Part shown: one piece after another, positions 3,352 through 49,000 of the stretch
How positions within the stretch are numbered: the first letter of the stretch is position 1
Layout: each line of letters starts with the position of its first letter
DNA from: Azolla caroliniana
Lineage: Eukaryota; Plantae; Polypodiophyta
Length of the DNA: 64,000 nt
NCBI GenBank assembly: GCA_043228905.1
Contig: JBHGNT010000022.1
Span: 11,718,001-11,782,000 of the forward strand
Reading direction: 5' to 3'
Translations under genes and position numbers: made by a program
The notes under the pieces: generated by a model
The model's input: the letters and a program-made list of their open reading frames with translations, nothing else
What the model was told of the DNA's origin: nothing
Database searches by the model: none

Positions 3352-4737
3352 TGTTAGGATCTCGGTCCCTCCGGATGGGATACGAAGGCCCGGCATCGGA
3401 AGACCCGGTGAGAACCGGTGTCGTAGTGTGTCGCAAGATTCAAACCCTATACCTCCACGTAGACAAACCCCAACCTTACCATTGTACTAATTTATCTTTA
3501 GTGTTCTAAATATAGATTTAATACCTATAAGACCTTTATTTATGCCTACCTTTATTAAAAAGGTAAGTCATGCATTTTTTAGAGTGCGTGAATACTTTAT
3601 TTATAAGAAAAATGTAAACCAATAAAATATTACTCGTGCACATCTAGCAAGCATGAGCATTATATTTAGGAAATAAAAGCATAGTGTAAAAAGCAACTCA
3701 TGCACATTTAGTGTGCATGAACATTTTAGAAAAAGCATAGAGTCTATCTATAGAAAAAACATAGATTGTTAAGACTCTCCCATCACTATATAAGGATGAG
3801 GAGCACAATGTAATAGGGGTGAAAAATATTTGGAAATTGGATATATTTCCAAAAACACCAATTAATAAACTATAATCGTGGGATTCACGAAATAATCTAT
3901 ACTTGTGGGATTCACAAGTTCTTTTATCTATTTCTTTCAATCTAAATACATATTCTTATCTAAATATTGATTAATCGAATATAATACACTCGTGGGATTC
4001 ATGAGATTTCTATCTCTCTTTCTAATAATCTATCCATAACTATAAACTTGTCTCAAATTCACGATCTGGCGCCGAAAGGCACGACACCGGATGTGGAGTA
4101 CCCGGCAACGGAAGACCCAGTGAGAACCGGATGTGGAGTAGCCAGAACCGGATGATGCAAACCTGGTGAGAACCGGATGATGAGTACCCGGCAAGGAAGA
4201 ACCGGTGAGAACCGGATGATGCAGACCCGGTGAGAACCAGATGTTGCAGGCCTGGTGAGAACCTCTCACCGGATGAAGGGACATATATGTAGATATGTTT
4301 CTGAGAGCCCATTGGGGCTATATCTGTAAATAGTCCTAAAATGTCATATTAGTATAAATGTGACCTAGGGCAAATAGTGTGTATGATTATAGTTGTTGTT
4401 ATTATCTTTGTATAGTGTAATTGGTTCATCAACTGTACTAAGAGAGAGAGAGAGAGAGCGATACAGAGCATGTCTCTGTTGTAACCGCCGCCAGGCGAAG
4501 ATTGTGAGCAAGAGGTCGTTGCCTCTGTGCTCCGTGTTGTACTCCTTGACATAGTGATAGTTTGGAGTGTGTGGACTCCCGTGGTTTTTCCCTCTCAGGG
4601 TTTTCCACGTTAACATCCTGTGTATTCTCTTTTTGTTTGTGTACTTACCTCCATTCCCATTTCTTTTGTGTTTTGATTGTCATCAAGTGATCTACGCTTC
4701 GGTTGGGGCCAGAGATTATTCCGCATATTTCTCGTCA
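3352..4737 (+). repeat. 3' LTR of copia A with CCGG-rich U3 tandem repeats, interrupted by a 668-bp insert
   Basis: Start matches the intact family LTR (TGTTGGGATTTCGGTCCCTCCGGATGGGA). Repeated CCCGGTGAGAACCGGATGATG units at 4087-4275. Host RNase H codons resume at 4738. Confidence 0.85.
3419..4086. mobile_element. Non-autonomous TGT...ACA element with 4-bp CCGG TSD (Ginger-like DNA transposon or atypical solo LTR)
   Basis: Termini TGTCGT/ACGACA. CCGG at 3415-3418 and 4087-4090; removing the insert restores the LTR unit AGAACCGGATG. AT-rich, non-coding. Confidence 0.8.
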
Positions 4738-18769: not shown

Positions 18770-19649
18770 CATTCTCTATGTTTTTTATTGCTATCTAGTT
18801 GAGATTTGTATTTATCTTCACACTACCAAGTCAACTCGCTTGTCGATCCGGTCGACCGACCCGATTTCGACTACTGATTCTCCCAATTCGATCGGTCAAC
18901 TTCTCTCATTAGGAGGGATAGAATCCTAACAATATTTGTATGGTTTCCATGCATCATCATCGTCGACATAGCTTGAAACATCTACTCCATGACAAGATTT
19001 ATGGGTTCCTTTGCTACAAATTCGGGTTGCATACTGACAACGTTATCCCCATCGGCTTGATACATCTCTAACATTGTACAGCTAAATGATGGAGTTTCGA
19101 GTTGAACAATGGAGAAACTATAGTGCTCATGCGGTGTTTGACATGTGTGAAAAACCTTTTTGTAGGGCATCAGGTTTTATGCCCGACAGTTGGACAGTTG
19201 CCCGTCTTCTTCACAAATGTGGCGTACAAGATCTGACTCAAAAATAACCAATGCCTTTACCCTAGTTGTCAGGAACAATACTAAGACAGAGAAGTACTAT
19301 CAAGAACAGTACTAAGACAAACAAGGAATTAGTACTAAAAGATGAGAATTAGTACTAAGGGAGGTGTAGAACTCTCGAGGGAAGGGAAGAGTGAGAGTGA
19401 GTGAGTGAGTGAGTGAGAGAGAGAGAATGATGATAATAAAAGATATATATTATGTTAAGAGAATATACAATAGTACCTAGGAGGCTTAAGACTGGTGTTG
19501 AACCGATTTGGTTCAAAATAATGCCTTGGGCCTCCTTTTATAGTGTTCTTAGGAGTACTCCTGAAGTTTCTAGAATGTTCCAGAGAAATCTGGAATATAC
19601 ATCAATTTTCTATAGTAAAACTTAAATGAAAATAATATCCTTCGTATTA

Positions 19650-19720
19650 CAACATATAGTCTAATGGTTAAGAGCTCGACCCATGTAACATAAGGTCATA
19701 GGTTTGAGTCTTGCCATATC
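19650..19720 (+). promoter_or_regulatory. tRNA-like Pol III A-box/B-box module in 3' LTR of F
   Basis: TAGTCTAATGG (19657) and GGTTTGAGTCT (19701), 44 nt apart; AGGTC variable-loop-like motif before the T arm. Confidence 0.6.
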
Positions 19721-22700
19721 ATGACACTATCCCTCCTTTAAAACGACGAGTGTCACGAGTCATTTTGGATTGAGGACCCGGTTTGTCTGGATATTGACGA
19801 TGGAAGTCTTCAAGAAGAGCACGAGCATTGGGCACATTCTCTATTGGTTCCCAAGTACACTCGCTGGGACTATATCCTAGCTAATCGACTAAACAGTAGA
19901 GCTTGTTGCGAACAATCTTGGAATCGAGGATGGCAACAATCTCGTACTCAGGTCCATCTTCAAGTTCGATCGGGGGTGGAGGTTGTTTAATACGACCTGG
20001 GATGGTGCTATCTTGATAGGGTTCGAGGAGAGAACTATGAAACACTGGATGTATCCGAAGTTGTGGAGGTAGATTGAGACAAAAAACAACATCATTAATT
20101 TTTCCGATAATACGGAAAGGACCTAATCGCCAATAATCCAACATCTCACATGGGCGAGTAGTCTTGATGTGTCGTCGTAGTAGCCATACCTGATCTCCAA
20201 TGTTAAAACTAGATGGAAGCCGATGACGATCCGCGTAAACCTTGTGTGTTTGTTGAGCTTGTTGTAGATGAGTAGATAAATCCGCTTGTATCTTGCATAA
20301 CTGCTCCAAACGATCCTTTGCGCAAGGATTTGTGGGTAACTCTCGGGTTTCAAATACACACCACTGGGGGTGACAACATAAAATGGTGTAACCTTTGTAT
20401 ATGAGTGGACAGACTTATTATATGCAAATTCGGCGAAGTGGAGAATATCCGCCCAATCATCTTGATGATAGCTTAGAAAGCACCGAAGATATTGGTCCAG
20501 TGTTTGATTTGTTCATTCTAATTGGCCATCTGTTTGCAGGTGGTAGCCAGAGGAGAGTTTACAAGTTACCTTGAGCATTTTAAAGAGGTGCTTCCAGAAT
20601 TTCGAGACGAACTGGGGTCCACGGTTGCTAATGATACTATCGGGAAGGCCATGATGCCGACATACTTCACGCATGACAGTTTCAGCGGTTTCCTCACTAG
20701 AGATTTCCTTAGTACATGGCAGGAAATGGGCCATCTTCGTATATCGATCTACTACTGTTAAGATCGCATCGAATCCCTTAGAGGCTAGAAGATTTGTGAT
20801 GAAATCTAGAGCAATGGATTGTCACGGCTTGCTTGGAATTGGTAATGGTTCTAATAAACCATATGGATGATGCCTTGGCATTTTTGCTCTACAACATGTA
20901 TCACAAGTCTGAACAAAATCTTTGACAAATTGTCGCATATGGGGCCACCAAAATGATCGTTGTACTAAATCTAATGTTTTAGTACTACCAAAATGCCCAG
21001 CTGTATATGTGTCATGACAATTTTGGACTACTCGAAGGCAACAAGAACCATTAGGAACATACAAGAGTTTCTTAAATAATAGTAATCCATCATGACATTC
21101 AAATTGTCGATAGTCCGTACCTGGTTGTTGCGACTGTGAAAAAGATGCTTGAGAGGGATCAATTTGTGATAGAATGTCTTGGGCGAAAGCATCTGTCTTC
21201 AAGTCCTTACGTATGGTATCAATAACGTGGAAATCCAAGGGCATACCAAAGACCTGCGTTGCTTGCAGTCGTGTTGGTCCCAGGATTACTTGCTTTTGGT
21301 TATCGAAAGTTGACTCGCCAAGAGGCGGTGCTAGATACGAGCATCGTGATAATGCATCTTCCTTCCCTTGTTGCTTCCCCGGACAATATGTAATTTTGAA
21401 GTCGAAACGAGTGAGGAATTGGGCCCACCGAGCTTGACGTCGATTTAACACACAAGCATTCTGAAAGTAGGCAAGGTTTTGTTGATCACTGAATACAGTG
21501 ACTTGATGAGAAGATCCCTCTAGAAAATGCCTCCATTGCGTAAAAGAGTCCACTATTGCTAATAGCTTCTTATCATGAATTTCATAGTTGATTTCAGCGG
21601 CGTCAAACTGCGTGAGTGGAAAGCCACAGGATGGAGTTTTTCATCATCCCCTTGTTGTGACAGAATGCTACTCAAGGCGAAATCCGACGCGTCTGCTTTG
21701 ATGATGAATGGTTTTCCCGGATCAACATGAGCTAGACTAGAAGTTGATGTAAATGCCTTCTTAAGACTCTCAAAAGCCATGTCTACTTCTTCAGACCAAA
21801 CGAACGATTGTCCCTTCTTGGTAAGTTGTGTGAGAGGTAGAACAAGCTTTGAGTAATCATGTATAAACTTGCGGTAGAAATTGGCAAAGCATAAAAAGCA
21901 TTGCACATCTCGCAACGAACACGGAGTCTACCACTCGACCACCGTTTTGACCTTAGTTGGATCCATGGAGACGCCTTCCGAGGAAATGACATAGCCCACA
22001 AATTCTACCTAGTTGCACTCAAAACTACATTTTTCCAGCTTTGCATAAAGACCATGTTCTCGAAGTCGGGTCTTCGAATAAACCAGTAGATCATCCAAAT
22101 AGATGATTAAAAAAACATCCAAGAGATCTTGGAATATATCATTTGCCATGTGCTGGAAGACTATTAATGAGGCCGAATGGCATGACCGTATACTCGAAGT
22201 GCCCATATCTGGTGCGAAACGCGATCTTCCATTCATCTCCTGGTCGGATCCGTATGAGGTTATATGCTCCTCATAAGTCAATCTTTGTGAAGAACCTTGC
22301 ACCATTGATCTGTTCTAAAAGACTTGAGATAAGGGGAAGTGCATACCTATTCCTGATGGTGACCTTATTCAAGCCACGGTAATCTACGACGAGACGAAGT
22401 GATCCATCCTTTTTCTTGACGAAGAAAATGGGTGCGCCGGCTAGAGATTTCGAATGTCGAATTTTGCCAAATTCTCCTCTATATAGGGTCAAAGGACTAA
22501 ACTAGCTTGGTTGGTGACAAATTGTAGATCGGTCCCCATGGTGGATCTTTTCCCAGTTGTAAATCGATGGGGCAATCATACAGTCGATGGTCAGGAAGTG
22601 TATTCTCTTGTACTTTATCGAACACATCGGCATAATGACAATACTTCTCTGGAAGTTGAATGGTGGACTCCTCTTTAGTGGTGTTGGAGGGTTTTACTGA

Positions 22701-23658
22701 TACTGCAAAGAGAAACATTTCTTCCTTGCGTCCTTCCTCACGCAACTGACGTAGCGAAATGCTTGCAATCTTATGAGTAGATCCTCGGGTTTGTTGATAC
22801 CGGATTTCTCTTGTTCTCCAATTTATGTCTGGGTTATGTGATTCGAACCATGGTAATCCCAAAACAATGGGATGTTTTGGGATATTAATGATATTAAAGG
22901 ATACTACACACGCTAAATTATCTAGGATAATATTAACGGGCTTTGACTCTTCTATGATATTTTCGGAAGCAATGGGACGACCATCAATGACTACTATAGA
23001 GGCTGGACACGAGAGTTTTCTTAGGGATATCTGGTGAGCTTGGGCAAAATTCCTATCCACGAAGCAAGAATTAGCTCCGGAATCTAGGAGTGTTGAGACA
23101 TGTGCTTAAAGGAAATGGAACCACTAATGGGTTACACAAATCTAGGGTTGTCCAACCAAACGGCTCCTATTTTGGCTGGACTTAGTCGTTTAACTCTTCT
23201 TCTAACTAAGGACATCAAATTTGTTCGATAAATTTGGGCTATTAGTACTATTAGGATTATTAGATATTCCTACTGAAATAGACTCGGGTTTAGTACAATT
23301 AGAACTAGAGACTATTTGGTTTACTTGTCTTCTTGGCCTATGGGAACAGTTCATTGCAATATGCCATGGACCACCGCAATAAAGACATAGTCGATTTGCT
23401 CGGCGTCACCGCTTTTCTTCTTTCGATAATGGTCTGCGACGACGTGTAGTGTCAATTTCCATCGGAGTTGTAGTATTCATTAGAGACGCATTATAAGATT
23501 CCCTTGGAAAAGGTTTTGCTACCACTGAGGTGTAGGTGGACTTTGATCTTGCCCTTGGCAACTAGTACTAACGTTCCTAACGTCGTTCGAAAAGACGGTT
23601 GTTGCATCTCACTGTGCGACTGATTGCTTCTATCAATGACTTTGGTTCTTCGGGGAAG

Positions 23659-26600
23659 TGTTAAGAGTCTATTACTAATCAATAGACCAAATCAAGTAAT
23701 AAGGAAGAAAATAGATTGGATAGAAGAACCCGTTCCACCCGACCACCCCCGAGCTATGATCTAAACATAGCCAACCTACCACCGACGTCCCATACCGCCA
23801 GATATTAGGATGACTAATACCTTGGAAGAGATAAACACGATCGTCGAGACGAAAGCCTAGACCGCACCACCGGTGTCTACGACAGCAGCCTTCCGACGTG
23901 ATTCCCTATGAGGGTAGCTAAGCCTCATATTTATACCTTTTCCTAGGCCCCTTGAATAGATGTGCCTTTCTAAAAGGCTCTCTATTCATTGGTTGTCTAA
24001 ATCATGATAGTGCATGCACATATCATTCATTCTATCCAATCATTAGTCCCCTTTTTAATAATAGTGAACATACCCTTCACTAATGTAAATATTAGTGACC
24101 TACCCTCACCAACGTTATGTGTACATAACATACTCCCCTACTTCAAAAGATTGCACTCTTGCAATATAAAGTGAGGAAATTGTGCCTTAAGCGAATGCTC
24201 GCGTTCCCATGTGGCATCATCAATAGGTTTATCCATCCATTTGATCTTGAATAGCCGAATCTCTTTAGAACGTAAACATTTAGTACGAGAATCAAGAATT
24301 CGTTCAGGAACATGAGGTTTGTAAGAAAAATCCTCTAATGTTACAAGATCTTGGATTGTGATGGTGTTATCACCAGAGCCTAAAAATGGTTTTAGACGAC
24401 TAACGTGAAAAACAGGATGAATACCAACGTTACGAGGTAAGGCAAGGTGATAAGCAGATGACCCAACTCGCTTAAGGATTTCAAATGGGCCACAATATCG
24501 TGGGGCTAACTTAGCGCACTTGCCCGTAGATAATGACGTAGAATCAGTCGGGACACGCAAAAAAACTTTTTGACCAATAGTAAATGCACGAGGACGTCTA
24601 TCCTGATCAGCATAAAATCGAGCACGATCTTGAGCTGTCTTGACATTTTCTTTGGCAATATGCAACATTTGGTTCATGTCTTGCAAAAAATTGCGTGTAC
24701 TGTCTAATGTATCACGATGAATCGTGACATCAACTGGGGCACGTGGCTGAAAACCATACATCAACATAAAAGGACTATATCCAGTGGATGTATGTTTAGA
24801 GCTATTATAGGCAAATTCTAAGATAGGAAGGTATTGCTCCCACTTAGAAGGGGTTTTTGCTACATAAGCTCGAAGCATGTCCTCAATAATTTGATTAACT
24901 CGTTCAGTTTGTCCATCAGACTGAGGATGATCTGCGGAACTCATGCTCAACGTAGTTTCTAGTTTCTTAAAGACCTGAGTCCAAAAGTCACTAGTAAACT
25001 TGGAATCTCGATCACTAACAATATCCATCGGTAATCCATAAAAACGAAATAACTCATCAACAAATTGATAAGCCAACTGTTGAGCGGTTACCGTGGTTTT
25101 TGTAGGAATAAATCTAGCTAATTTTGTTAGCCTGTCAACGACAACCCATATGGCATCATGACCCCTCTGTGTACGAGGTAAACTAACAATAAAATCCATC
25201 GAGATACTTTCCCATTTATTGTTGGGAATATCTAAGGGATGTAAAAGACCAGCAGCTTTAAGTCGTTCCGACTTATTAATCTGACATTGTAAGCATTGAG
25301 TTACGTATTTATGCACGTCAGAGCGCATCTTACGCCAGAAAAAAGTACACGAGATGAGAACGAGTGTGCGTTGTATTCCAGGATGACCAGCAGATGGTGC
25401 ATCATGACATTCATGAAAAAATTTCTGTTTAACATTTGGTAAATCTGGAATACAGACCTTTCCACTACGGTAGAGCAAACCGTTTGTAATGTGAAAGGTC
25501 GCCTTCGAGGGTAGGGTGCTAGTATCGGCATCTAAACCAGATTCGGCTTTCGTCCAGTATTTTGAGAAATAACTGTCACCAAGGTATTTCCCTCGAAGGT
25601 GATCTAAAAGATCAGATTTTATTTCCGTGAAGCTAAGCATGTTAACTTCTTTAATGCGACTAAGAGCATCAGCAACGGTCTTCATAGAACCCTTGCGATA
25701 TCGTATGGAAAAATCAAAATCTTGCATAAGGTCAGCCCAACGGCCTTTACGACCAACAAGATCGAGCTGGTCACAAAAATACTTTAATGATTGATGGTCT
25801 GTTGTAACCACAAATTTATTTCCATAGAGATAGTGCCTCCATGTTTTAAGTGCGTGTATCACCGCAAACAACTCTTTCTCTTGAACCGAATACCGAGATT
25901 GAGCAGCATCAAGCTTCTTACTTTCAAAAGCAATAGGGTGACCACCTTGATAAAGAACGGCACCAATAGCATAATCACTAGCATCGGTTTCAATTGAGAA
26001 AGGCTTAGAAGGGTCTGGTAATAGAAGAGTGGGAGCCTGACACACATGCTCCTTGAGTGTCTCAAATGATTTGTCAAGTTGTTCATTCCATGAAATTGGT
26101 TTGACAGACTTACGTGGATGACCTTTTAAAAGGTCAGTTAATGGCGTAGTCAATTTGGAATAGTTACGAATTGATTTTCGTAAAAATCCAACAAACCCTA
26201 AGAATGATCTAAGTTCACGAATATTACGAGGAATGGGCCAAAGTTTAACCTTTTCAATACGAGAAGGTTCAATTTCAACGCCATTTTCTGTAATTAAATG
26301 ACCTAGGTACACAATAGATTTTTGGAAGAAGTCACATTTTGAATGTTTTGCATAGAAAGAGTTGTCACGCAACTTTCGCAAAACAAATCGAACATGTTGA
26401 ACATGATCTTGCAAGGTACGGCTATATATCAAAATATCATCCAAGAAGACGACAACAAAATCACCGAGTTGATCTCGGAAAACATCATTCATCGCTTGTT
26501 GGAATGTGGCTGGAGCATTAGTCAACCCAAACGGCATGACTAAAAACTCATAATGGCCATAGCGCGTACGAAAAGCGGTTTTAGGAATATCATCCTCGGC

Positions 26601-29600
26601 GATGCGAATCTGATGATAACCAGTTCGTAAGTCAATTTTCGTAAAATATCGAGCCCCGTGCAAACGATCAATCAAATCATCGGCACGAGGTAATGGATAT
26701 GCATTCTTAATTGTCATTTTATTCAAACGGCGATAATTGATACACATTCGCCACGAACCTTCCTTCTTCTTGACTAATAGAACTGGCGCACCCCAAGGTG
26801 ATTTACTATACCTAATGTGGCCCATACTCAAGTATTCCTTAAGTTGTTTAGCGATCTCATCCTCTTCTAATCGACTAAGTCGGTAAGGTGGAATGCTCAC
26901 AGGAGCAGCCCCAGGGATGAGTTCAATTTGATGGTCCACATTACGTTTAGGTGGTAAAGTAAGCGGTAATTCAGTAGGAAACGCATCTTGAAAATCCTCT
27001 AAAATAGAGTCGAGTAATCGTTGCTCAAAATGTGGTAATTGTGTGGCGTCAATATTAAAATAATAAAATTGAACCGCAGGATCAATTACACACGAATAAA
27101 TTAATGAACTAGAATACTCACTTAAAGATTTAGAAGACACAAGTGAATGAGAAGGAAGTTTGGAACATTGAATAAAATGTTTACAATTATTAAGTTCAAA
27201 TGTGATTGAGTGATTAACCCAATCAATGGACAAAGAAGGGTTTTTATTAAAAAACCAAGGATATCCTAAAATGACATCTGCGGATTGTAATTTCATAACA
27301 TGAAAGTCAAGCTTCTCCAAATAAGTATCTATTTGAATTGGCAGTTGACAAACAATGCCACTGATGTATTGAACGTTTCCATTTGCCATGTGAACTTGAT
27401 AGATATGATCACTTGCGTTTATGTGGAGCTCCATTTGCTGCACAAAGTGATCATTAAGAAAATTGTGAGAACTACCGGAATCAAACAAGAAATGTGCTTG
27501 TGTTCCATTGATATATCCGACTGCTCGGAGTAAATCATTAGGTCCAAGTAAATGTGAAGGAAAAGTGCATTCACATAAACTTAAGTGATTGGTATGAACT
27601 TCAACAATATCAAAAGACTCACCTGTGTGACTCGTAGATTTGTCTTGAGGAGGGGTGTTCATTGACTTCCTCTCAAGACGACGACAGGTATCCTTTGTGT
27701 GGCCCCGCTTCTTGCAATATGCACAGAAGAGGTTCGGTTTCTTTGAGTCGCGGTCAAGAGTGTCACTGGATTGCTTACGTTTCCCAATGAACTTGACATT
27801 CGGAGTTTTGGCGAACTCAGGTTTATTGTGGTCTTTCTTGGAAGTCCTATGGTATCGCAGCACAATGTTGACGGCTTCCTCGAAAGTTGTGGGGTCCTTG
27901 TCATGGACAATCCAATGATAATCCCCATTGGGAATACCATTCAAAAAACAAGCGACAAACCATTTCTCACCCGTAAGTCCCGATTTTTGGATCTGGGTCC
28001 GTGCGTGATGCACATAATCCTCGAGAGAGGTAAATGGCTTACTAGACAATGTGAGCAAGTGTTGCGCTTGTTCGGTTTGAGAAGGTGGCTGCAAGAATTG
28101 TTTCTTAAAAACATCAACGAAACCTTCCCAAGTTGTGGGTAAGTTTTTTGCGGTCCTTAGGCCACGCCACCAAGCAGCAGCTCAGCCACCTAACTCACGA
28201 CCGACATAACCAATTTTTACTGCATCGGGCTTGGGATGAAGCTCAAAGTGAGACTCCCAACGACCAAGCCAAGTGCTAATGGCCTCCTCGGTTCTTTCTT
28301 TCTTATCTCCCTTGAAAGGCGTGACTACGAAGGAAGGTTCACCTTCTTTCTTGGACTCAATAGTTAATTCTTGGAATTTCTTTTCCAATGCCATATTGGC
28401 CTGTCTCATTTCGGCCAATTGATTCAAGGTAGTAGTGAGCAATTGCTCAATAGTGATCTCAGCTTGTGTGCGAGATGCGGATTGGGGTTGAGAGGTCTCA
28501 TTTGGAGAGATCGTTCCAACTGCGTTGAAAACTTGTTCCATGATGCACGCTGTGGGTATGCAATAAAATAAGGAGGTTAAGAAAATACACAAGCAAAATG
28601 AATGCTTGAAATTTTGATTGAAAGAACTTTATCCAAGAAAGTATCTCATGTCTTTACCCCTCTAGACATATGAGATGTGATTCGAGATCCGATAACTATG
28701 GTAACACTATGGTGTTTTAAAAACCATGGGGGAAACATAGCTAAGATGTATTTCTCGGATCTCTATCTTGAGTAATCATGGCGGCTCCCTGAGGCTCAAC
28801 CATGGTTCTTACATCAATGAAATTTCCTAGATAGCCTTATATTAATGCCAACCCATCATGTATTATATGGTCGAGAAAGTGTATTACGTGAAAAAACAAG
28901 TGCACTCACAAGTAATATTCTAGTCTTGCGAGCAATAAGCAAACGTGATGATAAAATGATAAAATAAGGCACTACTCATAAGAGTTAAGTAGTGACGAAA
29001 ACAAGGGTAACAAAAAAAAAAAGAACCCATGTGTTACCTACGAAAAAAACAATGTCACAAATAAATGGGAAGTGCAAGGTATGCACATATACATCCCAAT
29101 ATGATTGTTATAACTTGCACAATTGTGACATAAGCCACAAATTGATACAAGTGATGACGGTGTTGTGCGCAAAGATGTAATACTCAAATCCATGAGTAAA
29201 ACATCAATAAGGGAACTCATGTGGTTTTACTCGTTTTCTAAGGCTTGATGATAAGAGTTAAACCTAGATGACCCGTTGAAAAAAATCGTTCAACAAGCCA
29301 CTCCATACGAAAAAATAGTCTACACGTAAAGGTTACATTAAAATAAACGATGTAAATACTTTATACATGAAAAGGAAGTGGAAAAAGGAGAGTTAATTGT
29401 GGGCGGGTAAATAATAATTACTAGAAAATCATATAAGTGAAACACTACTTATGAAATTAAAATTTAATTAGAATAATCAACAATTAGGTGTATGGAATCA
29501 AACATGCCCTAAGATACGAAACCCTAGGGTAGTTGACATGCACCTCCTCAAGACCACCACATATCCCTAGAATCGGCCAAGTAATGGCTAATTAAAGAGG

Positions 29601-30602
29601 AAAGTGGCATAGGTAAGTGACATATACCTCGTCAAGGCCACATCATCCCTTAGAATCGGCCAAGTGATGGCTCAATAGAGGGGAAGAGTGGTATACTCAA
29701 CATCATATGCAAAACGGCCATGAGATAAGCGTGTGCGATTAGAGCAAACACGCTCGACCCAATGCACAAGAATAATTATTATCGTAAGAGTTCAAGAGAG
29801 GAGAGAGTGGGATATATATCGCAATATGCAAAAGGCCATGAGTTGAGCGTGTGCGATTAGTGCAAACACGCTCGGCCCGATGCATAACAATAAGTAAAAT
29901 CGTAGCGTAGTAGGAGGTAGAAAGAAAGAGAATAAAACGTAATACCAATTTGATTCGACCATAAAGAACGCATAATAGAAAAAGAGAAGAGATCAAAAAA
30001 GAAGAATACCGGGTTTAGAGTGTTGTTTTGATCCTGAGAAGAGCATGACGAGCCTTGTTAGATCCCCCTCGCTCACACGCAAAAAACATCAAAACAACAA
30101 AAAAATTGTTAGTAATCGCTCTGATACCACTGTTAAGAGTCTATTACTAATCAATAGACCAAATCAAGTAATAAGGAAGAAAATAGATTGGATAGAAGAA
30201 CCCGTTCCACCCGACCACCCCCGAGCTATGATCTAGACATAGCCAACCTACCACCGACGTCCCATACCGCCGGATATTAGGATGACTAATACCTTGGAAG
30301 AGATAAACACGATCGTCGAGACGAAAGCCTAGCCCGCACCACCGGTGTCTACGACAGCAGCCTTCCGACGTGATTCCCTATGAGGGTAGCTAAGCCTCAT
30401 ATTTATACCTTTTCCTAGGCCCCTTGAATAGATGTGCCTTTCTAAAAGGCTCTCTATTCATTGGTTGTCTAAATCATGATAGTGCATGCACATATCATTC
30501 ATTCTATCCAATCATTAGTCCCCTTTTTAATAATAGTGAACATACCCTTCACTAATGTAAATATTAGTGACCTACCCTCACCAACGTTATGTGTACATAA
30601 CA
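23659..30602 (-). mobile_element. Ty3/gypsy chromovirus H, near-intact, recent
   Basis: 472-bp LTRs 30131-30602 and 23659-24130, with 3 differences seen by eye. TSD GGAAG at 23654-23658 and 30603-30607. PBS TGGTATCAGAGC at 30118-30129; PPT next to 24131. Confidence 0.97.
24138..28541 (-). CDS. gag-pol polyprotein of element H (gag, CCHC, PR, RT, RNase H, IN, chromodomain), one in-frame TGA at 28182-28184
   Basis: ORF 28541-28182 and the 1318-aa ORF are in the same frame (..[17 protein letters not shown]). Motifs [61 protein letters not shown]. Confidence 0.92.
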
Positions 30603-31365
30603 GGAAGGTCAAGAGTAAATCCTTGACATCGTTATGTAGACCATAATGAAATTGCTCTATTAGTGCTTGGTCATCCCAGGGGATATCGGAGGCAAGTGGC
30701 GGAAATCTACAGCGTATGCGGAGGTTGGATGATCACCTTGACCTAATCGTCAGATTTTGTTGATTGTTGTCCTTATGCTGTCAATATCTCCAAAACAGGC
30801 TTTAAACTCACTTAAAAACTCTTCAAAATTATTTAGTAAAGGAGATTCATTTTCTAAAAATCGAGTGAACCATGCCAAAGTTGAGCCACTTAACAACATG
30901 CCTACTAAACCCAGTTGTGATGCATCGGTGGGATATCGGGAAGGATGCATTTGAATGACTAATCGCACCTGATTAAGGAATCCTCTAAATTGCGATCGCA
31001 TTCCATCGAATTTCATGGGAAGGCCGATCTTGGGTTCTTTATGAATCCCTTGCGTACTAGGTCCTTGTTGTTGCATCGCTACTATGGTTGCTTCAAGCTA
31101 TTGCACGCGTAACACTAGTTCCCCATGTTGTTGTTGCGTTTGCTGCTTCTCTAAGGAGATTTGTTGAAGCTCCCCCAACAGTCATTGATTTTCTTGTTCC
31201 AATGCGAGAAACTTCTCTTTCAACCATTGCAACTCCGAAAAAACGGATCGATATTCTTGAGCGTTAACAGTGGCCATAGTATGAGAGAAAAGAGGAATAA
31301 ATTTTTTTGATTGGCATGAAGGGAGGGAGAAGGAAGAAGATAAAGGAAGAGAAGGAAGGAGACAA

Positions 31366-31379
31366 AAATCGGTTCAAAC
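31366..31379 (-). promoter_or_regulatory. Putative self-priming PBS of element F
   Basis: Element-sense TTGAACCGATTT lies 2 nt after the 5' LTR. It is complementary to an LTR 12-mer (19498-19509, 12/12; 31605-31616, 11/12) about 33 nt downstream of the LTR TATA box. Confidence 0.75.
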
Positions 31380-31756
31380 TGTCAGGAACAATACTAACAT
31401 AGAGAAGTATTGTCAGGAACAGTACTAAGACAGAGAAGGAATTAGTACTAAAAGATGAGGATTAGTACTAAGGGAGGTGTAGAACTCTCGAGGGAAGGAA
31501 AGAGTGAGTGAGTGAGTGAGAGAGAGAGAGAGAATGATGATAACAAAAGATATATATTATGTTAAGAGAATATACAATAGTAGCTAGGAGGCTTAAGACT
31601 GGCGTTGAATCGATTTGGTTCAAAATAATGCCTTGTGCCTCCTTTTATAGTGTTCTCAAGAGTACTCCTAAAGTTTCTGGAATGTTCCAGAGAAATCTGG
31701 AATATACATCAATTTTCCATAGTAAAACTTAAATGAAAATAATATTTTTTATATTA

Positions 31757-31827
31757 CAAAATATAGTCTAATGGTTAAGAGTTCAACCCATGTAACATAA
31801 GGTCATAGGTTCGAGTCTTGCTATATC
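31757..31827 (+). promoter_or_regulatory. tRNA-like Pol III A-box/B-box module in 5' LTR of F
   Basis: TAGTCTAATGG (31764) and GGTTCGAGTCT (31808), 44 nt apart. Confidence 0.65.
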
Positions 31828-33620
31828 ATGACACTAGTTCGTCTATTACTTATATAGTCAAGTTACATGGCGAACATTATTGTAACTGCTCTCTTACTAT
31901 TCTTGGCCTGATTCGGCTCGACTTGGGACATAGTAGGGTCTTTGGTTTGGTCTTACAACACATCATACACAACATTATATTTATCAATATTATTATTTAT
32001 TATTTCGGTGTATTTTATTTATTTGTTATTATTATTATTATTTTAATAACTATTATCTTTATTATTATTATCTTGTTTTTGTAACCAATTAACTACCATT
32101 ATTATTGTTATTGTTAGTCTTTTTTTTTCCTTGAAAGATTTTCTTCAATAGTATTAAAAATATCGAAAAATACAAGTAAAAGTTATTTTCCTGTAGGCTT
32201 ACAGCGTAATGTATCTACACCTAAACCTGTACATACAAAAACAACTTATACAGGGCTTTTGAACCTTAAACAGTACATTAGCATGTTGGTTTTGTATCAA
32301 GAAAGGGTCCATGGAATATGATGATTCCATTGAGGTCTTTGATTTGTCACTACAAAGAGAGGCACCTTCCTCCATAAGTGAATAATCTTCATCCTTCTTT
32401 TATAATGAATATTTTTTGGAGAACCGCACATGTTATCATATTGCCCACGAACTATTGTCAACAATGTTTCCCATATCTCAAGCAATACCTCTGGAAGACC
32501 AAGCTTTGCGGCATCGTAAAGTTGATTGCATCTACATTTCCATAATACCCATAATGTTATCGTAGTCACAATTTTCCAAATCTGGACAGATCGCACCTGC
32601 TTTCAAGGTTGTTGAAACGGACTAACTGATATCAATCTTCTGTTATGTACCATCATGGCCTCTTGTATATCATCTGCCTCATACAACATCAAGCTGGAGT
32701 GTAAAATTCCCCACACCATTGCTCCCCATGAGAACAAGCAACCAACATTGACTGTTAGGAATAAAGAAAGAACTTTATTCCATAATTGTTGAGCCAAGGG
32801 ACAAGACCAAAGGGCATGCTTAGTAGTCTCTGGCGTTGCATAGCAAAATCCACATTGCCTGAGATTATGTGCTACATTCCCTTTTAATGTCTAGCCAATT
32901 GGTAATGTTGCATGCACTAGTAGCCATCTAAAAAGAATAAATTTAGTTGAAAGACCAGATCCATCTCCAATATGTTTTCAACTACAACGTTGAAACACCC
33001 CAGTTAGTCCAATGTTTTTGTGTTGCTGGCGCCATTACATTCATAGACCTTAGTAATGACCTTCCTAGCTTTATTGAATACTGAAAGAAGGGAACCTTTA
33101 TGATCTGTTCCCCCAAGGAATATGTCAAAAACCAACCCCCCGGATCCCATAGTAGTCTTGCAACAGATTCTTTTGCATACAACCACATCATATCACACAT
33201 ATCAGTGATAAAAGGATAAGGGTCAAGCATCCACTTCTTTCCCATTTTTGCAAGCACTTTGACTGGTGCATTCTGCACGTGTTGAAAATAGCTGCAGTCA
33301 AAGGCATGAGGTTGCATTCTATTGTTATCAAGAACCTCAAAATAAGAGATGCACCCATTAGGTGAGATACCCTTGACAACCAACAATATATCATTTATGA
33401 AGCATCCAAACAAAAAATGCTCTTGTATGGGTTTGAAGGTCATCGCTAATGAGGAATATGACGTTGAAATGACAGTCGTCATTATCTTGGCTCCATGAAG
33501 AGCTTGTAAATGCGCAAGTCGATCTGCTTGTGGCATCTGTTGGAATTGAATCCAAGTGCTTACAGATGTAGCTAGCCCATTATCCAGTTTACGCCAGACA
33601 AGGTGAGTTCTTAGACCCAA

Positions 33621-35120
33621 TGTCGAGACTCGTGGGTAGGAGATAGAGTGAGAGCGAGAGCGATAGCGAACGAGAGAGGGTGTGTGTGTGTGCATGAGAG
33701 AGAGTGTGTGAGAGAGAGTGAGAGTGAGAGAGATAAGACTTGAAATAGAAATGAGATTATATTATGATGAAATAAGATTACAATGAGTAGGCTAAGGGCT
33801 AAAGACTGGTGTTGAACCGAATGAGTTGAAATGAATGTATGGACAGTTATTTATAGATCCTTATGGAGTATTCTAGAATGTTCTAGAATATTTTAGATTT
33901 TTATGATAAGAAATATAATCATGAAATATTAAAGGATGTTCTAGAATATTCTAATATCTCGTAATAACTAAAAATATAATGATTATAATCACACAACATA
34001 TATATTATTTCAATGGTTAAGGATTCAACACATAGACTAAGAAGTCGTGGGTTCGATTCTTGATAAGCCAAAAATGTTGTCTTGACATTATCCCCCCTTT
34101 CGATGAAGAGTTCGACGAGTCGGAAGACAAGAGTTCGGACTTGGTTTATGGGGATATTTGTCGTGAAATGCAACAACCACGTCAGAGGCATTAGCAAGAT
34201 GCTCTGCAGGCTCCCATGTTCGACCATTAGGTGTATAATCTAACCAATCAACCAAATAATATAGTTTGTTGCGGATGATCTTGGAGTCGAGAATGGCAGC
34301 AACCTCATATTCAGAGCCATTAGAAACTTCGATTGGAGGTGGGGGAGGTGTAAGACGACCCGGAATAGAGCTTGTTGTGTAGGGAGGTGAAACATGGAAG
34401 ACCGGGTGAAGACGCATATGAGGAGGGAGATCAAGACGAAATGTCACATCATTGATCTTACCAGAGATTACATATGGGCCGAAACGTTGATAATCCCATT
34501 TGTAGCAAGGTCGGGTGGTTTTAATGCTACCTTGTAAGAGCCATACACGATCTCCTACTTGAAACATAGTCGATGAATCACGTTGATGACGATCAACAAT
34601 CTTCTTTTGAGTGTTTTGGGCATCACATAAATGATGCAAAAGTATATCCTGAACTTCTTGGAGTTGAGTGAGTTGATCTTCAGCAGCCAGGTTTTGCGGG
34701 AGTTCGGGATGTTCAAGCATCGTCCAACGAGGATGGTATCCAATGTTAGCAAAAAATGGGGAATATCCAGTAGAAGAATGTTCTGAGTTGTTGTAAGCAA
34801 ATTCCGCCAAATGTAAATCCACCCAATCATCTTGTTGATAGTTGACAAAACAACGTAGATATTGTTTGACTGTTTGGTTGGTGCACTCACTCTGCCCATT
34901 AGTCTCTGGATGGTAGCCGAAAGAGAGTTTACATGAAGTATGTAAGAATTCTAGAATAATCTAGAATGTTTTAGAATATTCTAATATCTCGTAATAACTA
35001 AAAATATAATTATTATAATCACACAACATATATGTTATTTCAATGGTTAAGGGTTCAACACATAGATCAAGAAGTCATGGGTTCGATTCTTGATAAGCCA
35101 AAAATGTTATTTTCATGACA
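33621..35120 (-). mobile_element. Internally deleted chromovirus G (related to F) inserted in LINE ORF2
   Basis: TSD CCCAA at 33616-33620 and 35121-35125. 3' LTR 33621-34087, PPT from 34088, IN end and chromodomain (EYEVAAILDSKIIRNKLYYLVDW..TWEP). Only the outer ~170 bp of the 5' LTR remain. Confidence 0.92.
33999..34070 (+). promoter_or_regulatory. tRNA-like A-box/B-box module in 3' LTR of G (second copy 35029-35100)
   Basis: TATTTCAATGG (34006; 35036) and GGTTCGATTCT (34050; 35080), each 44 nt apart. Confidence 0.6.
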
Positions 35121-38100
35121 CCCAACACTTTTCCTGCATTATCCCAAAATAGAGAATTTCCAAGAAGAGGTTGATTAAGCAATGCATCCCAAGTAGAAGG
35201 CTTCTCCTTAATTAGAAATGGCTTGATCCCATCCCATGCCCTTATGATTCCTAACAAAAATAAGTTAGAAGCTAGATCCTGCCTTGACGTTTGTACATCA
35301 TTCAAGAACAACCATTTTAGAGAGGGAGACCAAACTCCCCCCATCCTAGGACTTAACTTCATTAGCTGGTTTAGAAACATTCCTTTCCAGGCTTTTGACC
35401 CTGGCAACAATCCTCGAATCACAAACTTAACCAAGAGGGCTCTTGACTGCATCAAAGGATCTATCAAACCCAACCCTCCATGGATTTTAGGTTGAATCAG
35501 CACCTTCCAAGCAACTTTGGCTATTCTTTGAGATCCATTTTTTCCTCCCTAGAGGAAATTACGAATCAAGCTTTGTACTTTCATTATTGTTGACCTAGAA
35601 AATAACCAAACAGAAGCTATAAACCACATGGAGGCCAAAAGTACTGAATTTGCTACTACAACCCGACCTGCAAAGGACAATTGTTGGGCATCCCAATATA
35701 GAAGTTTATGCTTTATTGATAATATCAGCGGGGATAACATAACTTCTGATTTTAACTCTATACCAACTAGGCATCCCAAATACCGAACAGGTTCACCTTG
35801 GTTAAGCTAGCGGAAAGTAGAAACTGGATACCAAGCGGGATGAGGCTCTCCACCCACCCATAACCCTACCGACTTATTCCAATTAAGAGAGGCACATGTA
35901 GCTTCCGAGAAATTCTGCAAAGCATTCTGTACCTGCCCAAGATTACCAATCTCCCCATCAACATGGAGGGTCGTATCATCTGCAAACTCAACATCCAATA
36001 TAGTAGATTGTGCAATAGGTAATGATATACCTTTTATACCAGTTGAAGAAGATCTTAAGTATGAGGCTAGAGCTTCCCCATACAAGATAAAAAGAGAAGG
36101 GGCAAGAGGACATCCTTGCCTAACCGACCTGGAAATTGGAAATATTGGCCCATAACCTCCAGCGAACAAAATTGAGCTAGAGGCTTGCCTATATAAGGCC
36201 GAAACACCATTTATCCATGCATTAGGAAAACCTAATCTTGACAACACTGCCTCAAGAAAGTCCCAATCTACTTTGTCATAGGTTTTTTCAAAGTCCAATA
36301 GTAAAATTGCCATTTGTTGTTTATTTTGTTGAGCTAGTGCAACCATTTCCCGGAACAAAAAGATATTATAAAAAATGCTTTTGTCTTGTATAAAACCAGA
36401 CTACGTATCATGAATAATAGATGGCAACAAAGATCATAATCTAATGGCAATTGTTTTTACCACAATCTTATAAATATCATTGCGCAGTGTTATTGGCTGC
36501 CACTTAGAAACTTCATCACATTGCACATTGGACTTAGGAATCATATATATTATTCCTTCCTTCCATTCCGCTGGAATAGTTCCCGTTGAAAAAATTAGAT
36601 TAGTCGCTCTAGTGAGGATAGGGCCAAGAAAATCCCAATAATGTAAGTAGAAGCCAATTCCTATTCCGTCTTTTCCGGGACAGACATCCTTACCCAAGGA
36701 TTTAGTTGCAAATAACACATCTTGAAACGTAAATGGTTGTATCAAATGAGATGCCATTTCATTTGTGATATTCTGCTAAATAGTTGCAAGTATATCTTGT
36801 TTCTCATAAAGACTATTTGTTGTAAAAGTTGTAGCAGACAACAATTGATGATAGTAATCTAAGATTATACCTCGCATTTCGGAGTCATCTGATGTATATG
36901 ATTCGTCATGCCATTTCAAGGAGGTAATAGAGACAGGTTTATATTTTCGTTTGAACTGATTAAAGAATTCCTTATTAACTCAATCTTGCTTTTGTGACCA
37001 GCGAGCAGTATTACGATAAAAGAAGAACGTCGAATGTGCTTGTTGCTTTTCTTTTAAACTTCTTTTTACCTGTTGCAAATAAGAAAGTAGCATGGATGAA
37101 GTTGGATACCTTTCCAATAGTTTTTGTAATGGTACAAGAACACGATGCAAATTGGCAATTTCTGAATTGCAACGATACACCAAAGCAGAGACTATATTCA
37201 TGAAGAAATTATTTGTATCAAGTATGGCATCAACCATCTTGCGAAGAATCAAACAATCATCCGTGAAGTTGTATTTTGACCATATCTGAACAATTGACAT
37301 CCGATGGCTATTATCAGATAGTAAGGAAGGAGGAATACCCCACTGCTTAGAGTATCTCTTCTTATAAAATGTAACATTTAGCTTCAGAGGGTCATGGTCA
37401 GATATCATTGATCCGGGAATAATGCCAAGGGATCCGCTGGCATCCCAAAAGAAACTGTTGGCATAAAATCTATCCAACGGAGACAAAGTTGCACTAACCA
37501 CACTCCCATCTGATCTAGAAAAATGTAGGGGCCCTTTGTATATGTGAGAAAGACTGCACCTTCCATAAATCCAAAAGAAAAAGAAAAGGAATCCCAACAC
37601 TTAGCTTCCCAACCTGAAATTGTAGTAGTTGTACATCCTATTCTATCATAAGCATCTTCAATCATATTAAAATCGCCTCCCACTAACCAACAATATGCTA
37701 ACCCCGCATATTCCACAAGAGAGCCAAAAACCCGCCCTCGCTGACGTTGAGTTAGGAACATAGATATTCATTAGGCCAACCTTCTGAGACCCTATTTTTA
37801 TGATAAGAAATTGTGCCCGTTTATTCATAACAGTACCTGCTGATAAGATAATAGATTGCAAGTGTTGTCTAAGAGCTATACATAATCCGGCCTGACAACT
37901 ATTTGGACCAAAGGTAGGAACCCAAAAATGAGTTCACCATCCTGGTAAAATGGATCCATACTTTTGAATCCTATCCCTGCACAGGTGATGCTCTTGCAAA
38001 AAGAGGATATCGATAGTGCCAATATTCTAAGAAGTACCTAAATTTGAACATACGAGTCCTTTAAATCTACGAAAAGCCTGACCACCCAGACCTTGCACAT

Positions 38101-42367: not shown

Positions 42368-42636
42368 CTGAGTAGTTAAAACCGTTTCTAAATGGGTTGA
42401 CAGTTCGGTTTGGTTCCATTCAGGTGTGAGGTTCCCAAATTGGTTCGAGCTCGGTTTGGCAAGGCTCAAACTAAACCGAACTGTTTTGGGGTTGAATTGC
42501 CTTGCCAAACCGAGCTCGAACCGTTTTGGGGTTGAATCGATTTAGCCTAACCGGTTTCTAAATTGGTTTGGCCAAACTGGCTAAGCCTAACCGGTTTAAG
42601 AACCGGTTCGACTTAAGTTTGAAACCTTCCAAACCC

Positions 42637-46000: not shown

Positions 46001-49000
46001 GTAGAAAAAATGGTTGCAAAGAGTAGAGACACAGCCAAGGAATAGAGCTTGTTTTAAGTAGCAAAAAAGAAAATGAAAACTTATACAAAAGAGGCTGGTA
46101 TAGCCTATTTATACAAAATTGGGGAATGTGGGTGAAATGGCTGTTTGGTAGTTAAGTGACTCTTGTACTACCAAACAGGTACAAAAAACTAGGAATATCT
46201 TGGAAAAGGTAGAAGAGAGAAAAGGCATTTAAAGAGTTGCAGATTCTAGAGAGAGAAAAATCTGAGAAAAGAGAGAATGTAGTACAGAGATAATAAATAT
46301 GAAAGAGAGTGCAGGTCTGGAGCTGCCACCCTCCAACACCTCTCTCAGCTCCAGAACGGCCATCAAACATTGAGTCGACCGAGGAGCTGATTAATGGCAT
46401 GCCTTGGAAGCGGGAAATATATATATATATATAGAGAGAGAGAGATTGTTGTCAACTTAACAGTTCTGAAACCCAAGAGAGAGAAAGAAGCTATCAATTT
46501 TGTCATGCCAAGCTTTGGGAGCTTGCTTTAAGCCATACAAGGCTTTGTGTAACCTGTAGACCATGTTTTTCTGCTCTAAAATCTCGAAACCTGGAGGCTG
46601 TTCAACATAAACCTCCTCTTTCAAGTCACCGTTAAGGAAGGCTGACTTGACATCCATTTGAAAAATGGCCCATTTGTTGTGAGCGGCAAGTGCAAGCGCA
46701 CATCGGATAGATGTGTACCTTGCTGTTGGAGCAAAAGTTTCCTCATAATCCACTCCTTCAACTTGTGAGTAGCCTTTTGCCACTAAACGTGCCTTGTGCT
46801 TATCCAAAGTACCATCAGCATGGTATTTGGTCTTGAAAATCCATTTCAATCCAATGACTTGTCGATGTGGAGGTCGTGGGACCAGTTCCCATGTATGATT
46901 CCACTCAATGGAATCAAGTTCAACTTCCATTGCTGCTTTCCACTTTGGAAGAACAAGGGCCTCTTTTGCTGTTGTGGGTTCTTTTGATTGCACAACAGTG
47001 CACAATAAGGCAAAGTTGCATGAGTGAAGAGGCCGTTGTGACTTACGTGTTCGAGAACCAGATGTATACTCATGAAGTTCAGCATCGGAGAGATGAGAAT
47101 CACGAATGGTGGCTTGAAGCCACTTGGGAAGTGGTGGAAGCTGGTTTGTAGAGGGAGTGGAAACAAGTGGAGTTGAGGGAGAGGTTTGAATTGTTGGCGA
47201 AGTTAGAGATTGAGTAGGAGGAGATGGGGGGCTTGAAGATGAGACATCTTCGTCTAAAATAGGAGATTCCGGAGGAGCTTGGATTTCAACCATGAACTCA
47301 GGTAAAATCCTAGAGTCATCTGGCTGAGACTCCACAAAATGAACATCCCTAGATATTGTTGAAATTCCGTGCTCGGCCACAACCGAGGAACAGGATCGAT
47401 TCGCAGAAAACGGGAAATACAAGAATGCACGAAGAACAACAGAGAGAAGAGCACACAGGATGTTTACGTGGAAAACCCTAAATGGGAAAAAACCACGGGA
47501 GTCCTCTAACTCCAACTATCACTATACACAGAGATGTACAATGGTGAGGCTACAAGGCAACAACCTTGAGCTCGCTGTCCTCGCCACAGGCGGCGGTATT
47601 ACACAGAGGCGTCGACCTCTTCCTTCCTCTTTCTCTCTCTCACTCTCGCTCGGCTGCTCTCACTTCGCTCCCTCTTCTTGGAAAACAGAAAATGAGCAAC
47701 AACAACAAACTGTTTGCCCTAAGTCATATTTATACACATATGACTTTTGGGCTATTTACAAATATAGCCTCAAGGGCTCTTGGCAAACATATTCACAAAT
47801 ATGTCCCCGCATCCGGATCTCTCTCCGGGTACATTCGTCATCCGGCTCCGTAACCGGGGTCTTCAGCATCCGGCTCCGTAACCGGGGTCTTCATCATCCG
47901 GCTCCGTAACCGGGGTCTTCATCATCCGGCTCCGTATCCGGGTACTCTTTATCCTGCTTCATGCCGGGTACTCTTCATCATCCGGTTCCGTAACCGCAAC
48001 CGGGCTTGCCGTCATTCATCTCCGGACATCCCATCCGGAGGGACCGAAATCCCAACAAACTCCCCCTTCACTTCGGCATGGGATGTCTCTCCAATCCGAC
48101 TCTCTTCCGGCACGCTCCCAGCTTGTCGGGTGTGAGCACTTTGGTCAGCATATCCGACCCGTTCTCGTCCGTGTGGACCTTCGTCAGCACGAACTCCTTG
48201 TCTTCTATCCTTTCCCGGATCCAGTGATATCTTCGCTGGATGTGCTTCGTCCGGGAGTGATAGGCCGCGTTCTTCGCAAGGTGGATGGCACTCTGACTGT
48301 CGCAGTAGAGTCGGTACTCCTCCTGCTGGATACCGAGCTCTCTAATGAAGTCCTTCATCCATATTATTTCTTTGCCGGCTTCAACAGCCGCCATGTACTC
48401 CGCCTCCGTGGTTGACAACGCAACCGTCTTCTGCAGCCTCGACTGCCACGAAACAGCTCCCCCTGCATACGTCATCACATACCCTGATGTGGACCGGCTG
48501 GTATCTGCATCAGCCGACATATCCGAATCGGTGAAACCGTCGAGTTCGGGTTTACCGGAGCCGAATCGGAGGCACACATTCGCTGTGCCCTTCAGGTATC
48601 GGAGTATCCACTTGACCGCGTTCCAGTGCTCTTTGCCGGGATTGCTCATGTACCGGCTCACCACTCCGACTGCATATCCGATGTCCGGTCTCGTACATAC
48701 CATGGCGTACATCAAGCTCCCGACGGCTGAGGCATATGGTACTTTCATCATATCCTCCTTTTCAGCCTTTGTCTTGGGGCTTTGCTTGCTGGACAGCTTG
48801 CAGTTTGCCGGGAGGGTCGATCCGACCGGTCTTGCCTCCGACATGTTGAACCGGTGAAGCACCTTCGTCACGTACTTCTCCTGTGACAGCCACAACTGCT
48901 TCTTCTTCCGGTCCCGGATGATGTGCATCCCTAGTATTTGCCTCGCCGGACCCAAATCCTTCATTGAGAAGGTTCGGTGAAGAGCCTTCTTCAGCATCCG

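Follow-up and report, generated by a model that had tools for sequence, protein, structure and literature searches.

Two elements of the window, as we call the whole stretch of 64,000 nucleotides analysed here, and most of their sampled relatives in one clade of Tcn1-like chromoviruses carry an antisense pair of tRNA-type A and B boxes at the outer edge of the U3 region of their LTRs. The module is real and clade-wide, and appears to be under purifying selection. Judging from sequence comparisons, we give a probability of about one half to the reading that selection keeps the antisense pair of these chromoviruses as a TFIIIC site that shields the element's own Pol II promoter.

Boxes and elements in the window

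The textbook A box reads TRGYNNARNGG, and the textbook B box GGTTCRANYC. A scan of the window recovers the four modules placed by a preliminary description of this DNA, with box starts 44 nt apart in all four, and the same textbook boxes, run over both strands, yield a fifth module that the description had missed:

19657..19710, + strand: module of the F 3' LTR (A box 19657-19667, AGGTC 19693-19697, B box 19701-19710, with C56 changed to T)
31764..31817, + strand: module of the F 5' LTR
34006..34059, + strand: module of the G 3' LTR (A box starting at 34006, B box at 34050)
35036..35089, + strand: module of the partial G 5' LTR (A box starting at 35036, B box at 35080)
3437..3489, - strand: fifth module, at the left edge of insertion H (A box at 3489, B box at 3446, spacing 43)

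The F 3', F 5', G 3' and G 5' modules differ from the textbook boxes at 1, 0, 1 and 1 positions; the chance level, taken from 8 other LTR-like segments of the window, is 5 to 7 mismatches at tRNA spacing on either strand. In four DNA runs, the majority letter at position 56 of the F module is C. None of the modules of the window is called as a tRNA by ARAGORN or Rfam. With relaxed settings, ARAGORN gives 0 matches at ps95, 9 at ps85, of which 2 cover a module, and noise at ps75. When the conserved letters were turned into a degenerate pattern and run against viral_contigs, four stretches matched, all four of them tRNA genes called by ARAGORN: the signature is thus tRNA-specific.

The elements that carry the modules, with the parts used below, are the following:

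19267-31833, - strand: element F, with target site duplication CTAGT and LTRs that are 92% alike
19267..19726, - strand: F 3' LTR, 460 bp, with CTAGT at 19262-19266
19498..19509, - strand: predicted 5' end of the F RNA and self-primer, 12 nt, 33 nt after the TATA box and an exact complement of the PBS
19536..19542, - strand: TATA box predicted for Pol II in the F LTR; the A box starts 115 nt further out
19727..19742, - strand: polypurine tract (PPT) region of F, adjoining the U3 end, as read from the sequence
19881..23105, - strand: F pol, broken, with pieces of protease, RNase H, integrase and SH3
31366..31377, - strand: predicted self-priming PBS of F, not a tRNA PBS, 2 nt past the 5' LTR
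31380..31833, - strand: F 5' LTR, 454 bp, with CTAGT at 31834-31838
33621..34087, - strand: G 3' LTR, with target site duplication CCCAA at 33616-33620
34088..34924, - strand: G integrase C-terminus, SH3 and chromodomain (Pfam Chromo and SH3_Tf2-1)
34925..35120, - strand: partial G 5' LTR, U3 only, a piece of about 195 nt, with CCCAA at 35121-35125
3419..4086, + strand: H, a solo-LTR-like insertion of 668 bp inside a copia LTR, with ends TGTCGT...ACGACA and a 4-bp CCGG duplication

The pol frames of F and G lie on the - strand and their modules on the + strand, and the B boxes end 16, 16, 28 and 31 nt from the termini at 19726, 31833, 34087 and 35120: the antisense position at the outer U3 edge, as first described, is borne out. 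All four LTR copies do carry the module, but the G 5' LTR is only a U3 piece, element G (33621-35120) having an internal deletion that runs from the middle of its 5' U3 to the integrase, with CCCAA still present. Another chromovirus is nested inside F at 23659-30602, and loose ends accumulate in four DNA runs at 19726, the terminus of the F 3' LTR.

The fifth module faces opposite to the inferred orientation of H, near whose right end stands TGGCGCCG. The CCGG duplication fits the NCGN preference given for Phygy in the available text of PMC6317226, and blastn finds no match to H among the fetched relative loci. If H is the LTR of an element other than a chromovirus, the module crosses lineages.

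Two further features of the window were noted. The copia at 47356-52876, nested in another copia, has 702-bp LTRs that are 100% identical and an open frame of 1404 aa, and is a very recent insertion. At 42430-42534, beside GT/GA microsatellites, a hairpin of about 100 nt has a weak Rfam match to a miRNA precursor, under the family threshold.

Occurrence among relatives

Relatives were fetched by alignment of the integrase and chromodomain, that is, by protein and not by motif, and the sample consists of the best 80 of 507 confirmed metagenome loci and one locus from the viral collection. In the 280 nt that follow the integrase, we searched for a pair of A and B boxes with at most 3 mismatches, allowing any spacing from 30 to 60; loci with less than 130 nt downstream (5/47, 1/10 and 3/26) were left out. 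The trees, which cover the fetched loci only, distinguish a main clade, to which F and G belong, from a second clade and from outgroups; 7 near-duplicates were removed for the pol tree.

Among these best 80 of 507 loci, the antisense pair is found near the start of U3 in 39 of 42 main-clade loci, or 17 of 20 families, and its spacing is 43 or 44 nt in 15 of the 17 families that bear it. None of the 23 outgroup loci, all from other assemblies, has an antisense pair. Dinucleotide shuffles match the search in 83 of 1200 cases, with only 2 of 1200 at spacing 43 or 44, and main-clade pol identity ranges from 54% to 94%. On the sense strand, pairs with 3 mismatches are not rare (8/42 main-clade and 7/23 outgroup loci), and pairs with at most 2 mismatches occur in one main-clade locus of 42. 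The tRNA-type nature claimed for the module is upheld.

Of 7 families in the second Tcn1-like clade, 5 have AGGT and a B box, antisense and at the edge of U3, again among the best 80 of 507 loci; the same test finds none on the sense strand and 0/14 in outgroups. A normally spaced A box is clearly present in two of its loci, L047 and L058. Grouping the two module clades together is rejected by the AU test (p-AU 0.0003, on a quick tree of 27 rows with groups named after an earlier tree), which makes them non-sister. In seven loci that form the sister of the second clade (L050, L053, L056, L057, L066, L068 and L072), short tandem repeats stand in place of the module at the U3 edge.

The module is dispensable: L004 and L048 are without a recognisable pair, and L026 retains a decayed B-box side only (the contig names give a coverage of 71 for L004 and 53 for L048). 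Locus L010 shows another kind of change, its A-box region being duplicated upstream of the module, just inward, and the tip of its LTR being duplicated as well.

Apart from those of the window, all carriers come from a single ENA assembly set (prefix ERZ10344), from which none of the outgroup loci is drawn. Consequently, the module families are not independent, and presence of the module tracks the host group more than the tree of the elements, which implies either repeated gain or exchange of LTRs in one host group, or loss elsewhere. In four DNA runs with four organism labels, hundreds to thousands of contigs match the F module.

The carriers are coding elements. Open frames of at least 600 aa, mostly of about 1200 aa with YxDD, are found in 26 module-bearing loci (collapsed assemblies, best 80 of 507). 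A Ty3/gypsy pol with a chromodomain, as in Tcn1, is present, with full sets of Pfam domains in close relatives; P0145, a close pol relative at 70% identity, has two extra Pfam matches within pol, PF00692 and PF22769, which we take to be of dUTPase type. Among loci with at least 450 nt downstream, F and 17 loci have a PBS of 11-12 nt, 2 nt past the LTR, complementary to a sequence 31-33 nt after the TATA box, and these sequences differ from family to family. The carriers are thus predicted self-primers, with no need of a tRNA primer; together with the chromodomain, this agrees with the assignment of the hosts to the Tcn1-like chromoviruses in the preliminary description, on trees of the fetched loci only.

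In 7 of the 8 loci checked, the distance from the A box inward to the TATA box is 112-207 nt, and the AT content of the 80 nt inward of the A box is 75%, compared to 57% for the window. With such an ordinary Pol II design, the carriers need no Pol III promoter for their RNA. About 12% of each of three polyA RNA runs, labelled as a related species, was screened and yielded 21, 11 and 15 reads. These few reads lie mostly on one strand over the LTR, the element sense if the usual chemistry is assumed. Depth on the opposite strand is at most 3 at 19704-19870, with no piles of starts or ends, in libraries of a type that misses short Pol III RNAs.

What is kept in the module, and for what

Conservation was tabulated per position, in tRNA numbering, over 21 families with the module, leaving out L004 and L026. 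The kept letters are T8, A14, T16, G18, G19, T20, AGGT at 44-47, the run G52-A58, and C61: G53, T55 and A58 are found in all 21 families, G19 and T16 in 20, and AGGT in 19. AGGT, T16 and T20 lie outside the search pattern. The acceptor and anticodon regions are randomised across families, and paired acceptor and anticodon stems, the mark of a tRNA gene, are not found: pairing stands at 41% and 44%, versus 40% expected. The D stem pairs at 58% and the T stem at 65%, neither pairing nor covariation exceeding column shuffles. It was thus rightly noted at the outset that boxes and spacing are retained and the RNA fold is not. Across families, the B box is anywhere between 12 and 65 nt from the terminus, and the box spacing does not vary.

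Within eight groups of close families, a column of the box cores has 0.22 extra alleles, compared with 0.51 for the anticodon arm and 0.55-0.56 for the flanks, the box value being flattered by an alignment anchored on the boxes. Boxes evolving at the background rate, absence from young intact copies, and a recent SINE insertion limited to a subfamily had been named as results that would speak against the first description, and none of the three occurred.

These figures bear on the alternative that the module is a neutral relic, left by an old insertion of a tRNA or SINE and carried passively by the LTR. The losses in L004, L048 and L026 are what a relic would undergo, and the families share both their ancestry and one host group. 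However, boxes that change less than half as often as spacer and flanks, at a fixed spacing and with a spacer randomised across families, are not: the per-position conservation largely refutes the relic, which we regard as very improbable.

Conservation is uneven within the boxes themselves. The 5' half of the A box is often off consensus, with T10 in 9 of 21 families, and the CpG at 56-57 is kept in 14 of 21, the others having CA (5), which is compatible with the consensus, or TG (2), though these numbers are small. Among copies of F, the variants G10A (11%) and A14G (9%), each in single runs, affect the A box; the B box and AGGTC are spared, and no indel reaches 8%. Since 18 of 21 spacer positions of the F family are as invariant as its boxes, these copy-level data cannot separate boxes from spacer. 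Over all families, the B-box side is the core, the A box being lost or shifted in some. A 6-bp hairpin encloses a T-loop that has shifted position in L028, L030 and L040, and in L040 the change is two-sided; not all families have this hairpin.

Is the module a working Pol III gene? From the 3' LTR, such a gene would transcribe the junction of U3 and PPT, and from the 5' LTR the flanking DNA, and the antisense RNA would tune silencing or copy number. An A box kept at a spacing of 43-44 nt is what transcription needs, and in several families a run of four T falls within the LTR or on the antisense strand of the PPT. In F, the first TTTT after the 3' B box is at 19763, as reported when an RNA of about 115 nt was first proposed. 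A defined RNA does not follow, however: of the 22 LTRs that were scored, 7 contain a T4 run, and in the 100 nt past the B box there is none in 8 of 21 families or in the G copy of the window. With no conserved terminator, the 115-nt RNA would be specific to its family. Body, fold and end of the transcript all vary, and no CAA start motif is conserved across families upstream of the A box; we consider this explanation unlikely.

With boxes and spacing kept, and RNA body and terminator free to change, the pattern is the one expected for a protein site on DNA. Assuming that the protein is TFIIIC, the preferred reading runs as follows. TFIIIC, probably with TFIIIB, would dock on the DNA of the module, back to back with the Pol II promoter, and would shield and open that promoter, 110-210 nt further in. 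In the 5' LTR, the bound module may form a boundary or a nucleosome-poor zone between the flanking chromatin and the promoter, limiting the inward spread of silencing. The backward orientation would make any Pol III transcription point away from the Pol II start, as a coding element needs.

TFIIIC at B boxes often marks chromatin boundaries, according to the available text of PMC8136502, which cites work in yeast and mammals; our search of the open-licence literature found no test of such a role in plants. Two observations count against the barrier proposed here. A pure barrier needs the B box alone, so that the kept A box and spacing suggest real Pol III transcription; and the conservation of AGGT goes beyond what the box consensus explains.

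The persistence of AGGT and the B box, which outlast the loss of the A box in the second clade, rather favours another use of bound and selected boxes, for instance as an ordinary site for a Pol II activator that descends from a SINE head, or as a means by which TFIIIC would tether the cDNA end or the integrated copies to particular nuclear sites. This alternative draws on the same box conservation data as the barrier. Two separate boxes jointly kept at tRNA spacing point specifically to TFIIIC, and we see only a small chance for it.

The kept AGGT would also be accounted for by a reading at the RNA level, in which the U3 of the genomic RNA pairs with a host tRNA along its D and T arms, as Ty3 does with the 3' half of its bipartite PBS, and the tRNA, once packaged, aids dimerisation or strand transfer. 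A similar tRNA-like stretch exists in the U3-R of HIV-1. The module agrees with Ty3 in its antisense orientation and in its place next to the PPT within U3, as far as the text consulted of PMC5371799 goes. On the other hand, the carriers are predicted self-primers, with a 12-nt PBS whose sequence differs among families, and thus have no tRNA at the 5' end to bridge. A complement of the T arm should moreover preserve the T-stem, and Watson-Crick pairing outside 53-61 is limited to 25 of 84 pairs. Such annealing is improbable.

As to origin, a tRNA gene or the head of a tRNA-derived SINE may have been captured in U3, and would then have been copied into both LTRs at each cycle of retrotransposition; an extended PBS is a further candidate source. 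No tail or target site duplication of a SINE is evident at the modules themselves, nor do they have a CCA end; F retains its PPT. Outside U3 edges, 335,962 bases of loci contain 2 modules, neither of them alike; a pair resembling a SINE head lies in the flank of outgroup locus L075, at about 2660-2720. No donor tRNA emerged; the tRNA-Asp gene of L013 resembles the modules at the level of the boxes only. This complete tRNA-Asp(GTC), called by ARAGORN at 128-201, is followed by GC-rich DNA and precedes the integrase match by about 1.3 kb; the contig may be chimeric, or the tRNA captured.

More tentatively, it can be conjectured that autonomous plant retrotransposons carry their own TFIIIC-bound boundary against silencing, and that, in one host group, two or more Tcn1-like lineages that are not sisters, and besides them a third type of LTR, gained or exchanged the module.

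Known systems

Pol III promoters in LTRs have so far been described for miniature, non-coding elements that make their own RNA; a coding clade that keeps such a promoter backwards must have it serve something else. If the boundary reading is true, each insertion and each solo LTR seeds a TFIIIC site in the host genome, and the LTR promoter is walled off from flanking heterochromatin. Many LTR-borne TFIIIC sites are then predicted in this host group, which would offer a natural, high-copy test of TFIIIC sites as chromatin boundaries in plants, and would bear on how a promoter stays active in chromoviruses, elements that insert among other repeats.

In the open-licence literature, our searches turned up no description of an antisense A/B-box module in the LTRs of autonomous elements. 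For Tcn1 or other coding plant elements, the available portions of PMC2864245 and PMC13570524 do not mention a tRNA-like LTR module, and the portion of PMC12789967 contains nothing relevant to it. The carriers resemble the Tcn1 clade (Tf1/sushi group) in their chromodomain integrase, predicted self-priming, lack of a tRNA PBS and 5-bp target site duplication, as given in parts of PMC6317226 and PMC2864245; self-priming of the Tf1 type was predicted for Tcn1, according to the text seen of PMC6317226 and bioRxiv 10.1101/2022.12.06.519325.

The novelty first suggested for a tRNA-type module in plant LTRs has to be narrowed: such a module is not new in itself, Helenus being known. The comparisons with Helenus and with other miniature elements that follow rest on the accessible part of PMC10886601 and its supplement. 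Helenus (TRIMp3; Kojima 2024) has tRNA-like LTRs in fungi, animals and Selaginella, the TRIM of the latter preceding the modules described here in plants. As in our elements, the tRNA-like sequence stands in both LTRs, boxes A and B are conserved without a functional tRNA, and capture of a SINE or tRNA is the proposed origin. Helenus, however, is non-coding and 311-1263 bp long, whereas the present carriers encode pol and a chromodomain; its boxes are proposed to drive Pol III transcription of the element, whereas the carriers have a TATA-type promoter and predicted self-priming. The tRNA-like part of Helenus-1_SMo lies on the strand of the PBS and PPT (supplement sequence), and our module is antisense at the U3 edge in all carriers, so that its boxes are not oriented for transcribing the element. 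Since both the short, non-coding structure and the sense orientation fail, the present system is not Helenus. The same source calls the sharing of tRNA-like LTR sequence with autonomous partners unlikely. By its account, similarity to part of a tRNA is moreover seen in 'not a few' of the LTRs in Repbase, of which only TRIMs were analysed; earlier, unannotated examples are thus possible. Cassandra and Ajax, two further TRIMs, likewise keep Pol III promoter motifs inside their LTRs, but the boxes are of the 5S type, the elements are non-autonomous, and the promoter makes the element's own RNA.

Two other systems share one trait each with the modules. The bipartite PBS of Ty3, in the text consulted of PMC5371799, includes a tRNA-complementary sequence in U3, but Ty3 pairs with its own primer tRNAiMet, whereas the elements studied here have neither a tRNA PBS nor an intact complement of the T-stem. 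B2 SINEs, as presented in the available text of PMC8136502, are mobile tRNA-derived boxes proposed to set chromatin edges; they are separate insertions in the mouse, partly linked to CTCF, whereas the boxes described here are a fixed part of an LTR.
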